Assembly (NCBI GenBank): GCA_965113315.1
Contig: OZ220374.1
DNA length: 64,000 bases
Reading direction: 5' to 3' (one strand)
From: Podarcis vaucheri
Lineage: Eukaryota
Below are positions 621 to 48,420 of this stretch, piece by piece. Each line of letters opens with the position of its first letter. Within the stretch, counting starts at the first letter, position 1. A program made the translations under genes and the position numbers. The notes beneath the pieces were generated by a model. It saw nothing but the letters and a program-made list of their open reading frames with translations, was not told where the DNA came from and searched no databases.

Positions 621-766
621 TCTAAGTTAAATGATGGCTGTTAACTGCCAGGTATTCTGTTGTATCAGAAAAGTTTGAAATGCAATCTAAAAAGGATTGG
701 GATTGGGAGTAATGAAATTTAGCATTGAAAATGAATTCAATTAAAGTTGACTTCTTCTTGGATGGA

Positions 767-1219
767 TGTCAGGGAACTGACATCAGAGGAAAGGGAGGTG
801 GTAGGGCTCCCAGAGACTGGGAGAGAGTCAGCAGCTAAAGCAGGGACAAGGAGGGGGAGCGAGGGGTCTCTGGAGGAGGATCTCAGTAATGCTGAGAGAG
901 ACGCAGCAGCCCAGGCAGGAAACAGCAGGGGAGAGAAAGGGGTGAGAGACACTTCCAGCGAAAATAGCGGGGAGGTGTCAGAAGCAACTGCAGGGAGACC
1001 CATGCTTCGCCGGAAGCTGCCACGTCGTGAGTCCAGGAGACGCGTTTCCGTTAAGGAACTTCTTTGCTGGAAGCGCTTCCGCAGGCAGCCACTGTCAGAC
1101 TCTACTAGTGACTAGAGCAGACATGTCTGAGGAGCTCTGTCACACACAGAGGTTTGTGGGGCCGCACAAACTCTGAAGGGGCACAATTTTAAGCACAAGC
1201 AGCTAATCATCCCCTGACA
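767..1219 (+). repeat. 5' LTR
   Basis: TG...CA with 8-bp terminal inverted repeat. Matches 5617-6069 except G1085/A5935 by eye. Confidence 0.97.
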
Positions 1220-1221
1220 GC

Positions 1222-1232
1222 AGTCTGACAGT
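1222..1232 (+). promoter_or_regulatory. Self-priming primer-binding site (Tf1-type)
   Basis: AGTCTGACAGT, 2 nt after the 5' LTR, is the exact reverse complement of LTR 1091-1101 (ACTGTCAGACT). No TGG tRNA-type PBS is present. Confidence 0.8.
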
Positions 1233-1264
1233 CTCTGTACGCTGCCTGTGCAGGAGAAAGCATC

Positions 1265-2021
1265 ATGAGCAACCCAGCCGGAACCGGAGGGGCAGGGGTT
1301 GGAGCTGGTCCAAGCTTGGAAGAAAGGTATCAAGCTCTGGAGGTCCAACTTGCGCTGCAGACGGCGAGGCTCGAGGAGAGAAGGGCTCAGGATGCTGACA
1401 AAAAGGGGAGAACCACTCAGTTCCCCAGAAAGGTACCAGGATTGGTGCAGAAGTTTGGGGGGGGCCCCAAGGATTACCATGCCTTTAGGACTGAGATGCA
1501 ATATGCCCTGAATGTGCAGTTTGATGAGTTCCCTGATGAGGAATCGCGAGTTGCTTTCGTAATTGGGCATCTTGAGAAGGGGGCGCGGGACTGGGTTCGA
1601 CCCCTGATGGCAACGCACAACGATATCCTAAAGGACACTATGAAATTCTTTCGTGCAATGGATATCATGTTTTCCAGCGATATTGAGGAAGGGGTGGTGC
1701 GCAGACAGCTAATGGCTTGCAAGCAGGGAAGCAGATCTGTCCGTGAGTACTGGACTGAATTTACCATGCTGATTCACAGATTGGGGTGGGATTTATCGGC
1801 AGCACCCATTCAGATGCTATTTGAAGAAGGAGGGAAAGGGAGCCCGGAAATGCTATCTCTGCCAACAGCCAGGCCACTTTGCCAGAGTCTGCCCCCAGAG
1901 GAAGGAATGGCAAGGGATGGTGGGAGCAGTTGAGGGGGAAGAGCAGGGAGAAACGGAGCAGGTAAAAGCCAACGCCTGGTTGCCAACGTCAGGGCACTGC
2001 AGCCAGGCCAAAGAGCAGTGA
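1265..2021 (+). pseudogene. gag: gag (PEG10/sushi-like capsid plus CCHC knuckle), broken near 1830
   Basis: Capsid-like ORF from ATG 1265 (KFGGGPKDYHAF...RVAFVIGHLEKGARDW...QGSRSVREY). The knuckle CYLCQQPGHFARVC is in a different frame (ORF 1821-2021) directly after FEEG. Confidence 0.9.
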
Positions 2022-2029
2022 AAGTGCCC
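1961..2029 (+). promoter_or_regulatory. Putative -1 ribosomal frameshift signal (slippery heptamer plus pseudoknot)
   Basis: G GTA AAA at 1961-1967. Stem 1: 1974-1983 / 1999-2008. Stem 2: 1992-1998 / 2023-2029. pol is in the -1 frame and open from 1961. Confidence 0.75.
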
Positions 2030-5000
2030 GTGCCAGAAGCTCCTCGACCTGCTCTAGTGATTGAAGTGTCGCTAGAGCTGCAAAATGGACACCCCCTAAA
2101 AATAAAGGCGCTGTTGGACTCAGGCAGCTCCTGCAATTTTATGAGCAAGGAGTTTGCTGCTGAACATCAGATACAGACTATCCCTTTAAGCAACCCCCTG
2201 CAGGTGACCACGATCGATGGCAGGGAACTGTTGGGAGGAGGAGTTAGCTTGCAGACCGTCCCAATGATAATGAGGGTGGCAAGGCACACAGAACTGATAG
2301 CGTTTAATGTGGCCACCTTGGGAGGCGCTCCCATTATTTTGGGAATGAGCTGGCTAGCCTTACATGATCCGCTGGTGGGCTGGCATCAAAGAGTGGTTTC
2401 CTTCGGTTCAGCACATTGCTTAGAACACTGCAGGGGGGAAAAGGGGTCAGCAGGGGCCCAAGCCACCCTAGCAGGGACTGAAGTAATGGGGAAGGGGAAG
2501 GTGCCACCACAGTATGCTGATCTCAGCGACGTGTTCAGCGAGAAGGAAGCTGACCAACTACCCCCGCATAGGCCCTTTGATTGCCAGATCAATTTACTCC
2601 CTGGAGCACAGCTTCCTGTAGGCAAGTTGTATGCCATGTCAGACAGGGAAATGCAGGAGTTGCGAGCGTTCATTGACAAGAACCTGAAGAGAGGCTTCAT
2701 CAGAGAGTCCAAGGCAGCGGGGGGTAGCCCAGTGTTTTTTGTGGATAAAAAAAACACGGACAAGCCGAGGCTGGTATGTGACTTTCGGCGCCTAAATGCA
2801 GTGACAGAGCCGGCGGCTTTTCCTATGCCCAGGATTGATGATATTTTGACCAGGGTGCGAAAAGGAAAGATTTTTACAAAGCTGGACCTAAGGGGGGCGT
2901 ACAACCTGATACGTATAAGGAAAGGGGATGAATGGAAGACCACCATGTTCACCCCTTTGGGGGCATTTGAATACCTCGTTATGCCTTTTGGATTACAAAC
3001 AGGCTCCGCGTGTTTTCAAGCCTTCATGAACCACGTACTGGGGCCTTTGCTCTACAAGAATTGCGTGGCCTTCTTAGATGACGTGTTGGTGTATTCGGAG
3101 AATGAGGAGCAACATGTGAGAGACGTCAGAGAAGTGTTGAGCAGGCTGCAAGCCAACAGACTGTGGGTGAAACTGGAGAAGTGTCAGTTTCATACCAAGG
3201 AGGTGGAATTCCTGGGGTACCGCTTGTCAGACAAGGGGTTGGCCATGGACCCCGGCAAGGTTCAAGCGGTGCTGGAATGGAAAACACCCAAGACCAAGAA
3301 GGATGTGCAGAGGTTCCTAGGGTTTGGAAACTTTTATCGTAAGTTCATCCGAAACTTCGCCCACCTGACGGCGCCCATCACGGACTGTCTCAGCAGTAAA
3401 AAGAAGTTTGTTTGGACGGGGGAGGCGGAGCGAGCGTTTGAGGAACTGAAAAGGGCCTTCGCCTCTGATGAACAACTTCTACATGTGGATTTACAAAAAA
3501 AGCTGAGGGTCGAAACAGACGCTTCTGACAGAGCCATAGGGGCGGTGCTTCTTCTGCAGCCGGGGAAGGAGGGGTCAGAGTGGCGACCGTGTGCCTTCTT
3601 TTCGCGAAAGCTGAACAAATCTGAGAGGAACTACACGGTGTACGACCGGGAACTTCTTGCGATTCATGAGGCCTTCCGGAGATGGAGGCACCTGCTAATT
3701 GGTGCACAACAGAAGGTGCAAGTGTGCACGGACCATAAGAATCTAGAGTATTGGAGAACTGCGCGAGTGCTCAACCAACGGCAGTTGAGATGGGCCCAGG
3801 AGTTCTCCAAATTTAACTTTGAGATTTGTTACGTACCAGGCCCGGAGAACGTTAGGGCGGACGCTCTCTCACGCAAACCTGAATATTTGGAGGGAGAGGG
3901 TGCACCCGAAGAGACCCATGTCATTCCCGAGGACCGCTGGGTGTGTGGGGCGGCATTGGTGGGGCAAAGGGAACTGGTAGAGGGAACGGTGCAGGATGAA
4001 TACGCCCAGGACAAACTCAGGGGTCTCAGGAGGGAGGGAGACAAACCCGGGGGTTTTGAGGAGAGAGATGGGGCGTTGTACTACAAGGGAGCGTTATACA
4101 TACCTGAAGGGGAATTGAGGGAAAAGGTACTCAAGCAACTGCACGATAGCCCCACAGCAGGGCATTTTGGGCAACACAAAACCATGTGGCTGGTTACCAG
4201 GGAATTCTGGTGGCCCAAGGTCAGGGAAGATGTGCGGGAATATGTGAGAGGGTGTGACCGATGCCAACGAGCCAAGGGGGAGAGGCGGGCACCGGCAGGT
4301 TTATTAGAACCACTACCCACGCCGGAAAGGCCATGGGAGGCAGTGGCAATAGATTTCATGACTGATCTGCCCAGGTCCAAAGGGAAAACAGCCATCATGG
4401 TTGTGGTAGACCTGTTAACCAAGATGGCCCACTTTATAGCCTGCTCACATGCGGTCACAGCGGAAGAAACCGCTAAATTGTTTGTGGAAAATGTGTTTAG
4501 GCTGCATGGCGCCCCCTTGAGGGTGGTTTCTGACCGAGGGAAACAATTTACTTCCAGGTTCTGGAGGAAGCTCATGAGCTTATTGCATGTAGAGGTGAAT
4601 TTCTCTACTGCCCGTCATCCAGAAACCAACGGGCAGGCGGAAAGAGCTAATGGTGTCCTCCAGCAATATTTGAGGTGTTATGTGAATGACAGAGAGAATG
4701 ATTGGGTGGAGAAGCTGGCGTTGGCAGAATTTGCCTACAACAATGCAGAGAACGTGTCCACGGGGATGAGCCCTTTTTTGGCTAATCACGGGTGTCATCC
4801 CCGAGCCTTCCCAGGGGGGGAAGGGGAGAACTGGAGCGTTCCAGCCGCAGAACAGTTCGTTGAAGAAATGGAAGCGATCCATCGCCAGCTCTAACTTAAT
4901 TTAAACAGGGCGAAGGAGGAATATAAGAGGCAGGCAGACAAAACCAGAAGGGAAGGGGAAAGCATTAGGGTGGGGGACCAGGTGTGGCTGTCCACCCAAG

Positions 5001-5602
5001 GGTTACCATTTAAAGGAGGTTGTAAGAAGTTAAGACCCAAAAGACTGGGCCCATTTGAAGTCACGCAACAGGTCAACCCAGTGGCTTTCAGACTCCGGTT
5101 ACCGAACCACATGAAGTTGCACCCAGTGTTCCACAGGTCGTTGCTGTCACCGTATATAGGGGACAGAGAGGGGAGGGTCAATAGGGGACCAGCTATGGAG
5201 GAAAAAGAACACAGCTACCATGTAGCGGAGATTCTCGATTCCAGGTGGAAGGGAGAGCAAGTAGAGTATTTGGTAATGTGGGAAGGGGAGCCGGAGTCGG
5301 AAAACACCTGGGTCAGGGCAGAGGATGTAGATGACGAGGTTTTGATTGAAACTTTTCATCAGAGATTCCCTCGTAAACCCCAGCCAGTGGCGAGGTTCCG
5401 GAGGGAATACTTCGCCACCACCGACGAAGAAGAAGAGTTGGAGGGGTTCTCTGATTCCGAGGTGGAGGAGGATTCAGCGAGTCGGAACGAAGACCGATGG
5501 AGGGAAATGTTCGAGACGTCTGAAGATGAAGAGGATTCTTTTCGGGGTTTCAGCTCCTCACCGCCCAGAGGAGAGAGTAGGAGCGGGGGAGAAGGGGGCC
5601 CT

Positions 5603-5616
5603 GGAGGGGAGGTGGA
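5603..5616 (+). promoter_or_regulatory. Polypurine tract
   Basis: GGAGGGGAGGTGGA abuts the TG of the 3' LTR. Confidence 0.85.
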
Positions 5617-6069
5617 TGTCAGGGAACTGACATCAGAGGAAAGGGAGGTGGTAGGGCTCCCAGAGACTGGGAGAGAGTCAGCAGCTAAAGCAGGGACAAG
5701 GAGGGGGAGCGAGGGGTCTCTGGAGGAGGATCTCAGTAATGCTGAGAGAGACGCAGCAGCCCAGGCAGGAAACAGCAGGGGAGAGAAAGGGGTGAGAGAC
5801 ACTTCCAGCGAAAATAGCGGGGAGGTGTCAGAAGCAACTGCAGGGAGACCCATGCTTCGCCGGAAGCTGCCACGTCGTGAGTCCAGGAGACGCGTTTCCG
5901 TTAAGGAACTTCTTTGCTGGAAGCGCTTCCGCAGACAGCCACTGTCAGACTCTACTAGTGACTAGAGCAGACATGTCTGAGGAGCTCTGTCACACACAGA
6001 GGTTTGTGGGGCCGCACAAACTCTGAAGGGGCACAATTTTAAGCACAAGCAGCTAATCATCCCCTGACA
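5617..6069 (+). repeat. 3' LTR
   Basis: Direct repeat of 767-1219, immediately preceded by a purine tract. Confidence 0.97.
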
Positions 6070-6131
6070 ATAGAGAACCATTGTGTTTGTCTAAAGGCTT
6101 TCAGTGTGTATTTCTGAAAGAGTTCTTCCCT

Positions 6132-18789: not shown

Positions 18790-20966
18790 AGGTTTTGAGA
18801 ATGGTATGGGTGCAATATATGCAGAACAAAAGGCTAAATTAATTGTAAATAATGTGATAACGGAAGAATTTAAAATAGAAAAAGGGACATGACAGGGATG
18901 CCCAATTTCCCCATTACTTTTTATATCAGTCCTGGAGGTTTTGCTAAATATGATTAGAAGGGACCAGCTGGTTAAAGGGGTACAGGTCGGAGCTAAACAG
19001 TACAAATTGAGGGCATTTGCAGATGACCTGGTACTTGCTTTACAAGAGCCAGACACTAGTACGAAAAGGGTTTTAGAATTAATTCAAGAATTTGGTCAAG
19101 TTGCAGGATTTAAGTTGAACAAACAAAAAACCAAGGTATTGGAGAAAAACTTAACAGTTACTGAAAGGGAGAGGTTCCAGAATGAAACAGGATTAACTGT
19201 GGTTAAGAAGGTGAAATACTTGGGGATTAATATGACATCAAAAATGTGAATTTATTTAAAGACAATTATGAGAAATGTTGGACAGAGGTAAAAAAAGATC
19301 TAGAAATATGGTCAAATTTGAAGCTTTCCTTGTTAGGCCGAATAGCTGTTATTAAGATTAATGTATTGCCGAGAATGTTGTTCCTATTCCAAACATTGCA
19401 AATTGTGGACAAGATGGATTGCTTCAAGAGGTGGCAGAAAGATGTCTCGAAGTTTGTCTGGCAGGGCAAAAAACCCAGAATAAAATTTAAAATTTTAACT
19501 GATGCAAAGGAAATTGGGGGGTTTGCCCTGCCGGACTTAAAACTGTACTATGAATCAGCAGCTTTCTGCTGGATGAAAGACTGGCTACTTCTTGAGAATA
19601 CTGATATCTTGGATTTGGAAGGTTTTAATAATGTATTCGGATGGCATGCATATATATGGTATGACAAGGTTAAAGCTCATAAAGCTTTTAAAAACCATAT
19701 TGTTAGGAAAGCACTATATAATGTTTGGATTAGATATAAAGACTTGTTGGAAAATAAAACCCCAAGGTGGTTGTCGCCAATGGAGGCTAAAGCTGTGAAA
19801 AAGCTCAATATGGAGGCCAAATGGCCAAAATATTGGGAAATTTTGGAACAGGAGGGAGATAAACTGAAATTACAGAGTTATGAGGAATTGAACATCAAGG
19901 TACGAGATTGGCTCCATTATTACCAAATAATGGAGGTTTATAAACAGGATAGGAAAATTGGCTTCCAGGTGGAGAAATCAAAATTAGAAACAGAACTGTT
20001 AGAACCCAATACTAAGAATTTGTCAAGAATGTATAACTTGTTGCTGAAATGGAATACGCAAGATGAAACTGTTAAATCAGCTATGATTAAGTGGGCACAA
20101 GACATTGGTCATAACATCATGTTTGCTGACTGGGAACAGTTGTGGACCACCAGTATAAAGTTTACGGCATGTAATGCCTTAAGAGAGAATATTATGAAAA
20201 TGATTTACAGGTGGTACATGACCCCAGACAAGCTTGCAAAGATCTACCATTTGCCCGATAATAAATGTTGGAAATGCAAAGAAACTGAAGGTACTTTTTT
20301 TCACCTTTGGTGGACGTGCCCGAAGATTAAGGCCTTCTGGGAAATGATATATAATGAAATGAAAAAGGTACTTAAATGTACTTTCCCTAAGAAACCAGAG
20401 GCCTCCCTCTTGGGCATTGTCGGCCAATTGGTGCCAAAGAAGGACAGAACATTCTTTATGTATGCTACAACAGCAGCAAGAATACTCATAGCAAAGTATT
20501 GGAAGACACAAGATCTACCCACCTTGGAAGAGTGGCAGATAAAGGTGATCGATTACATGGGACTGGCTGAAATGACTGACAGAATCTGAGACCAGGGGAA
20601 GGTGACGGCGGAAGAAGATTGGAAGAAATTTAAAATCTTAAGAAACACTGTAAAATTAATGAATGTTAAAATGTTGTGGTTTTACAAAGTAAGGGATTAC
20701 AGCTGGTAAAGATTAAGTAAAAGAAAAGAAAAGGAAAAATTGGATTAAAATAAGGGGAAGGATTTGCTGAAATAAATTTGGGTATTGGAATGCAGAAAGG
20801 GGAGGTATGGGGAAGTCGATGAAGTAAGTTTAAGGGGGGGGAAAGGAGTTGAAATTATATGTGTTTGTTTGTTTTTGTATGTATCTATGTGTAATGTGTT
20901 TTGTGTGTACTGTATGTGTTTTTATAATTTGTGAAAATTTAATAAATATTTATATTTTAAAAAAAA
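18790..20966 (+). mobile_element. 5'-truncated L1-type LINE (RT C-half, CCHC, 3' UTR, polyA)
   Basis: G*QGCPISP, AFADDL, KYLGI, CWKC...HLWWTC. Frameshift near 19245. AATAAA plus A tail. 16-bp TSD GATAGTGGCAAGTTTA (18774-18789 / 20967-20982). Confidence 0.94.
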
Positions 20967-47433: not shown

Positions 47434-48420
47434 TGTCATGAACTGGCAGGACAATGGGGAGGAGGAAGAGGCAGTGGCATAGCGTGGGGGTGCCAGGGGT
47501 GCCATCCGCACTGGGCGCAACATTTGGGGGGGCGCGTTTGGCCGGCCCTCCTCGAGGAAGCACGAACCCCACTGTCCTCGGACCTCCTCCGAAGCCTGGC
47601 GGTGGGGCGGAGAGACCTTCTCCCCGCGCCAGCCTTCGGAAGGATGCTCCGAAGCCTGGCGGTGGGGCGGAGAGACCTTCTCCCCGCGCCAGCCTTCGGA
47701 AGGATGCTCCGAAGCCTGGCGGTGGGGCGGAGAGACCTTCTCCCCGCACCAGCCTTCGGATGGCTGTCCTGAAGACTTGTGGTGGGAGCAGTGACGTAGC
47801 GTGGGGGGCGCAGGGGGGCCTGCTGCACCTGGCGCAACATCTGGGAGGGCGCGGAAGAGCCTCGAGTGCTAAAATCCACGGGTTAGGGGGCGCAAATTAC
47901 TTGCCTTGCCCCGGGTGCTGAGAACCCACGCTACGCCACTGGGAAGAGGAAGAGGAAGAGGAAGAATAGGATCTCGACAAGAGCTGAGGCAGGCTTGGTA
48001 TGGGGAAGGAGAGGCTGGTATAGGAAGTACTCATGAGGTGGTGGAAGATGATGAGGGGGTGGAGGCCAGTGCATGGGAACCAGAGCAGCGGGACCCATCC
48101 CCAGAGCCAGAGGTACCCCTGTCTCCATGAACATGGTGGACTCTGAGGCATAGGGAGCAGTGGCCAGGGCGCTCCAGGAGCCGGAGGCAGGCAAGGACCC
48201 ACAGCCCAGCTCCCTAGCTGACTTGGATGCTCCTGGACCACCACAGGACTGTGCTTTGAGGTTGACTCTGGGCTGTTTTCTGACCGCTGGACTTCAGGCG
48301 TGGCTACTTTGCTTGACCCTGAACCTCGTTTCCTGACCTTTGGACTTTGCTTGTGTGGACTGACCCTCAGACTTAGAACTTGGACTTGGCACACTGACTT
48401 GCTGCCCGGGGTGCTGGACA
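47434..48420 (+). mobile_element. Solo Gypsy-type LTR interrupted by a hAT MITE
   Basis: TGTCATGAACTGG...CTGGACA, related to 13252-13936. TSD is poor (ATAGA / GTAGG). Confidence 0.7.
47472..47941. mobile_element. hAT MITE containing three 60-bp tandem repeats
   Basis: TIR CAGTGGCATAGCGTGGG / CCCACGCTACGCCACTG, perfect 8-bp TSD GGAAGAGG, repeat at 47587-47760. Confidence 0.9.

Follow-up and report, generated by a model that had tools for sequence, protein, structure and literature searches.

Covariation between LTR and primer-binding site points to Tf1-type self-priming in a chromovirus family of the lizard Podarcis vaucheri

The element and its family

The window considered here, by which is meant the whole stretch of 64,000 nucleotides that was analysed, carries near its 5' end an LTR retrotransposon that is classed as a Ty3/gypsy chromovirus on the basis of its Pfam domains (gag, protease, RT, RNase H, integrase, SH3_Tf2-1 at E 1.6e-19, and a chromodomain, PF00385, at E 1.7e-12, over the cut-off). 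The gene order is gag, then PR-RT-RH-IN, the LTRs are of the form TG...CA, and the chromodomain lies at the integrase's C-terminus. The proteins nearest to those of the element come from Podarcis muralis (98% and 91%), while in a PDB search the nearest structure was the RT of Ty3 and no chromovirus reference was among the matches. The features to which the following discussion refers are these:

762-766, plus strand: left target-site duplication (TSD), ATGGA; the right copy, ATAGA at 6070-6074, matches at 4 of 5 positions
767-1219, plus strand: 5' LTR, 453 nt, TG...CA
1060-1066, plus strand: AT-rich 7-mer TTCTTTG, weak here, at -31 to -25 from the predicted start
1082-1089, plus strand: arm of a second helix proposed earlier; complements 1241-1248 only in this subfamily and is unconserved, with the predicted start downstream of it
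1088-1093, plus strand: initiator-like GCCA(+1)CT, with the predicted transcription start at A1091
1091-1101, plus strand: predicted 11-nt self-primer, from complementarity and covariation
1102-1103, plus strand: CU, which could pair with AG at 1219-1220 over a bulged C1221; adjoins the predicted cut and is invariant in 20/20 aligned rows
1193-1203, plus strand: U5-side LTR arm of the conserved second helix, with its partner at 1241-1251
1222-1232, plus strand: primer-binding site (PBS), 2 nt past the LTR end, complementary to 1091-1101
1241-1251, plus strand: leader arm of the second helix, pairing at 10 of 11 positions with 1193-1203
1265-1933, plus strand: what is left of gag, short of 257 nt near 1830 in comparison with siblings
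1934-4894, plus strand: pol, comprising protease, RT and RNase H together with the integrase core, with an in-frame TAA at 4892-4894
4895-5965, plus strand: remainder of the pol frame, with SH3_Tf2-1, the chromodomain (about 5216-5365) and lastly a tail crossing the PPT and the 3' LTR as far as TAG at 5963-5965
5603-5616, plus strand: purine-rich tract (PPT region) before the 3' LTR
5617-6069, plus strand: 3' LTR, with the primer copy at 5941-5951 in frame as part of the last pol codons

This particular copy is broken and not coding-competent, as it combines the gag deletion (a shortfall of 257 nt relative to 26 of 29 siblings, the other three being without the anchor) with the stop in the integrase. 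A reading made earlier from the letters alone (hereafter the sequence-only reading) had taken the element to be recently active, and while any implied activity of this very copy finds no support, given these two lesions, recent activity of the family is borne out. When 20 stretches containing group-A siblings were fetched, 17 could be resolved (three could not), and among these 17 a perfect 5-bp TSD was present in all, identical LTRs in nine, and both long frames open in nine; the family is thus young and recently active. A pattern for the primer region gave 2272 exact matches in the genome. The related groups there, ranked by Pol identity, are A (100%), A' (97%), E (92-94%), C (76-79%), D (59%) and B (47-49%), and the groups other than A were fetched through protein or Pfam similarity rather than through their PBS.

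The two LTRs of the window copy are identical at 452 of 453 positions, and an age estimate from this single difference was dropped as the letter in the 3' LTR is simply the A' subfamily state. More generally, the two LTRs of one insertion may differ in known subfamily letters, including those within the primer (as in the elements L185 and L163, and in the 3' LTR of the window at the position corresponding to 1085), and in all four of the elements whose LTRs differ within the primer it is the 5' LTR with which the PBS agrees. Such mixed-letter pairs suggest conversion or intermolecular strand transfer, in which case LTR divergence would be no clean clock in this family.

Some further observations may be recorded for completeness. 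The two copies of the TSD differ (ATGGA and ATAGA) despite the 99.8% identity of the LTRs, and the TGGA end of the left copy resembles the PPT side of the 3' LTR. There is likely to be an empty insertion site, as flank contigs in three DNA runs (X7, X10 and X11) match the window over 450-763 and have other letters after 763, a fourth run (X8) giving no coverage of that place; no variant at the primer or the PBS was found among the rows listed from the DNA runs. Many chromovirus copies cluster on one contig, C41 (for instance L102, L103, L107 and L108). Elsewhere in the window, a 452-aa frame at 19231-20589 with a C-terminal Cys/His motif has no Pfam match and in our reading resembles the closing part of a LINE ORF2, and at 47587-47786 there is a GC-rich tandem repeat whose 60-nt unit is present in 3.3 copies with 94% matches.

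Primer and binding site across six groups

When recomputed, the central observation of the sequence-only reading, namely that an 11-nt PBS is the exact complement of a stretch of the element's own LTR, was confirmed: 1091-1101 (ACTGTCAGACT), when reverse-complemented, is identical to 1222-1232 (AGTCTGACAGT), and this 11-mer is the longest perfect complement to be found between the LTR and the 60 nt that follow it. The same reading had proposed aligning family copies as a check, and the complementarity proves to be conserved in all six groups, with compensatory changes. In every resolved element of these groups the complement starts 2 nt past the LTR, and its length is 11 nt, or 10 in group B and in one D copy. 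Some elements enter twice into the total of 172 junction rows, of which 148 match at 10 or 11 of the 11 positions; the remaining 24 match at nine or fewer, and 17 of those derive from eight group-C loci, situated on the contig C41, that apparently have neither the LTR end nor the PBS. Counting only the fully paired cases, there are 11 distinct primer:PBS sequences, and for each PBS that was tested (8/8) the best match is the element's own LTR.

An alignment of 20 rows, chosen from distinct A, A', E and C rows having at least nine matches, shows primer and PBS paired in 99.1% of cells, with changes on both sides at 4 of the 11 pairs, and on a tree built without those columns at least eight joint changes of primer and PBS are required. 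At the level of the whole genome, the 982 junctions of groups A and A' comprise, at primer nucleotide 7 with its partner, 233 G-C, one A.C, one G.T and, by subtraction, 747 A-T; in other words the letters at this two-allele site match in 980 of 982 cases. Shared descent of the two subfamilies accounts for much of this figure. At two sites lying in between, 1160 and 1162, both alleles are present among the 100 rows listed, suggesting, so far as these rows go, that sites closer to the primer follow it less tightly than the PBS does.

That the 11-mer helix is prolonged directly on either side was considered and rejected; the two positions 5' of nucleotide 1 are paired in 0/20 rows. The immediate surroundings of the duplex are regular: in 13/13 elements listed, spanning the six groups, the LTR is followed by G and the primer by C, and a single unpaired pyrimidine separates that G from the PBS. 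This arrangement is a candidate mark for the cut site.

Predicted start, RNA helices and competing readings

If the primer is to be the 5' end of the RNA, transcription would have to begin at A1091, and it is exactly there that the pairing stops. The initiator consensus is BBCABW, and nucleotide 1 lies within an initiator of this type in groups A, A', C and D (the motif occupies 0.7-2% of the positions in the LTR); the two E copies checked both have ACCACT, and group B has only a pyrimidine-purine (T|G) step. At -31 there is a 7-mer that is TATA-like in B (GATAAAA or CAATAAA), D (TATTAAG) and E (TTTTATG in 3/4 copies, seen also in two C copies), ranking in the top 0.5-1.5% of U3 7-mers; the corresponding box in group A, TTCTTTG, is weak (top 5.4%). 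Because A, A', E and C are close relatives, the support from initiator and box amounts to about three independent lineages, and it should also be borne in mind that the initiator letters double as codons. Downstream of the start, an AATAAA occurs at +74 in D, no AATAAA was found in the other groups, and group A has neither AATAAA nor ATTAAA. The promoter geometry is suggestive, favouring the predicted start at A1091.

Beyond the primer duplex, the sequence-only reading had proposed that a second helix between 1082-1089 and 1241-1248 could extend it. In its 5' LTR form 1082-1089 is indeed an exact complement to 1241-1248 (the 3' LTR has A in the place matching G1085), but over the alignment they are paired in 59.4% of cells as against a shuffled mean of 59.7%, and this helix is therefore rejected as a conserved feature; since the pairing is only at shuffle level, chance may account for it. 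Being upstream of the proposed start, it would in any case be incompatible with a primer at the 5' end of the RNA. A different partner for the same part of the leader fares better, in that 89.2% of cells in the A/A'/E/C alignment show 1192-1204 paired with 1240-1252, and compensation is seen at 2 of 13 pairs. The computed energies for this copy give the upstream arm a binding energy to the leader of -20.1 kcal/mol versus -18.4 kcal/mol for the U5 arm, the U5:leader helix has a probability of 0.11 in a single-sequence fold, and, before the cut, it would cross the helix of the primer. Groups B and D yielded no clear equivalent. As for a third duplex, the only candidate is the CU:AG pairing across the bulge, and the computed duplex energy for 1102-1121 with 1205-1221 is -2.9 kcal/mol. 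It is likely, judging from the alignment, that 1193-1203 and 1241-1251 frame the primer duplex in the way seen in the Tf1 pretzel.

Of the competing explanations, the one that survives best, though we consider it improbable, accepts the duplex between R and PBS as real and places the start further upstream, so that the primer would be freed by internal cuts, or else the duplex would be structural (for packaging or dimerisation) and priming would be due to something else. It draws some support from the fact that, when upstream sequence is included in the fold, both the 1082-1089:1241-1248 helix and the 11-mer helix form, and from group A being without a clear TATA box. However, that upstream helix is unconserved, the pairing breaks off precisely at a position that resembles an initiator and has, in distant families, an AT-rich box at -31, and in all six groups the duplex occupies the very place, 2 nt from the LTR end, from which minus-strand synthesis has to set out.

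A second explanation would have a host tRNA or tRNA fragment as the primer, with the match to the LTR being secondary. Mature tRNAs end in CCA, so that a site for a tRNA 3' end would begin with TGG, and the claim of the sequence-only reading that no such site follows the 5' LTR holds good, the first TGG being at +81. The comparison with host tRNAs that it had called for was also run, over a partial set of 45 distinct sequences representing 19 anticodon types; within that set the longest complement to the PBS is 7 nt and the best match to a 3' end is 9/18. The partial nature of the set leaves this explanation some room, as does the half-tRNA priming known for some Ty1/copia lineages (mentioned in an excerpt of PMC6317226). 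What makes it very unlikely is that 11 different PBS sequences each follow their own LTR, which one conserved tRNA cannot explain.

The weakest alternative, that the complement arose by chance or as a local inverted duplication inherited without function, can appeal to the dinucleotide shuffling of the LTR, which in 72 of 20000 trials (0.36%) yielded an 11-nt complement starting in the first 6 nt past the LTR, and to the hexamer CTGACA common to the PBS and the LTR end, but is scarcely credible in view of the compensated pairs and joint changes described above, the identical offset kept by B and D although their letters are unrelated, and discordance at only two of 982 junctions. Because the family comparison reveals a conserved and covarying pairing, the 11-mer is, on the sequence evidence, not a product of chance.

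Coding overlap, proposed mechanism and known systems

The pol frame runs on across the PPT and U3, and in groups A, A', E, C and D its stop lies 18-22 nt past the primer start (in group B it lies 45 nt before it). In the 3' LTR the copied primer letters consequently serve as codons of the integrase tail as well. This tail, counted from the DSRW motif of the chromodomain (window 5366-5965), is about 240 aa long, or about 415 in D, and over its last 24 codons five comparisons within A, A', E and C gave pS of 0.18-0.78 versus pN of 0.00-0.24, while one D pair had no excess of pS (0.06 versus 0.07). In the A/A'/E/C comparisons, then, the part of pol that passes through the 3' LTR is under purifying selection.

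No Pfam family matched the LTR-encoded tail at any E value up to 10. In group B (L061, L063 and L065) and in P0012 and P0013 the tail ends near an RRSARL or RRSARI motif, which we take to resemble the nucleosome-binding core of HMGN proteins, and the group A tail has an Arg-rich stretch followed by LLCW; a role in chromatin tethering is possible for this candidate. In siblings gag and pol occupy different frames, and a scan of one sibling for slippery heptamers gave no convincing site.

In all of the sequence tests that were possible the element appears to behave like Tf1, and we consider it highly probable that it is a self-primer of that type. Its RNA would start at A1091; the first 11 nt would fold back to pair with 1222-1232, with the helix between 1193-1203 and 1241-1251 framing this duplex; and the element's own RNase H, a domain for which there is a Pfam match, would cut after nucleotide 11 and so free the primer, from which DNA synthesis would start 2 nt outside the LTR. 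Plus-strand synthesis would presumably then copy the primer into the PBS and so produce matched changes in one step, although selection alone could also give matched changes. Rather more speculative, and in our estimation somewhat less than an even bet, is the fuller proposal that in this squamate clade one 11-nt stretch serves as transcription start, as primer for RT and as selected codons of the integrase tail, while the PBS is rewritten from the attached primer in each cycle. Such rewriting would explain why 980 of 982 junctions match while sites in between are reshuffled. With promoter, primer and integrase-tail codons overlapping, the primer would be evolving under three constraints. Self-priming of the Tf1 type as such already predicts precisely where the lizard RNA should start and where it should be cut, and if the fuller proposal is true, about a thousand young copies let self-priming by an amniote element be read as a natural experiment.

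To our knowledge, self-priming has been proven only in fission yeast, and has elsewhere been inferred from single sequences; here a vertebrate genome offers population-scale support for it, in the form of six groups, of 11 variants that pair and of 982 junctions that can be counted. The source for self-primers in vertebrates is reportedly the work of Butler et al. in 2001. Their earlier description in the Tf1/Sushi group of yeast and vertebrates is noted in the part of PMC6317226 that was available, and excerpts of PMC10085805 and PMC4600332 make the same statement for Tf1/sushi elements (the “self-priming” of PMC4340606 is an RT-PCR artefact); self-priming is reported, in an excerpt of PMC7175516 also, as a trait shared across that group. 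Self-primers are thus already described among Tf1/sushi chromoviruses of vertebrates, the lizard element being a vertebrate chromovirus too, and it is in its novelty that the claim of the sequence-only reading, tRNA-independent self-priming by a lizard chromovirus, was overstated; the chromovirus domains, the Podarcis-like proteins and the covarying PBS all support the rest of it. Within the literature searched, which left most subscription journals and the repeat databases outside, no squamate case of self-priming was found.

The closest parallel is with Tf1 and Tf2 of Schizosaccharomyces pombe (and also Tj1, Tosmo1-3 and Tcry1), which are likewise chromodomain Ty3/gypsy elements with their first 11 nt complementary to the PBS. 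For Tf1 the start, cut and priming are experimental, the RNase H cut falling between nucleotides 11 and 12 according to an excerpt of PMC7175516, whereas in the lizard element we infer all of these, and the RNA folding, from the DNA. The Tf1 pretzel consists of three duplexes, sequences adjacent to the PBS being paired with LTR sequence downstream of the primer (PMC10085805, in the part available), and of these three two are well supported in the lizard element. The lizard element differs from Tf1/Tf2 in that gag and pol are in different frames in the siblings, and in that its pol frame extends over U3 and over the copy of the primer that lies within the 3' LTR.

A coding frame that enters the 3' LTR is itself known from plant CRM group A elements, as the accessible portion of PMC3059260 describes, this being the only paper on the feature found in the literature searched. 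According to that same portion, CRM uses tRNA-Met, and the part of its frame within the LTR encodes the CR motif; in the lizard element, on the other hand, the chromodomain precedes the LTR, and the tail that enters the LTR has no Pfam match and overlaps the self-primer.

With regard to wider relationships, the nearest proteins belong to squamate, tuatara, amphibian and fish elements, and in a tree of RT-RNase H (26 rows, with no named reference and no true outgroup among them) A, A', E, C and D form a single clade (100/100) that falls among squamate elements. The family probably belongs to the Tf1/sushi group. The class of mechanism is already known, and the lizard family is a new member of it.
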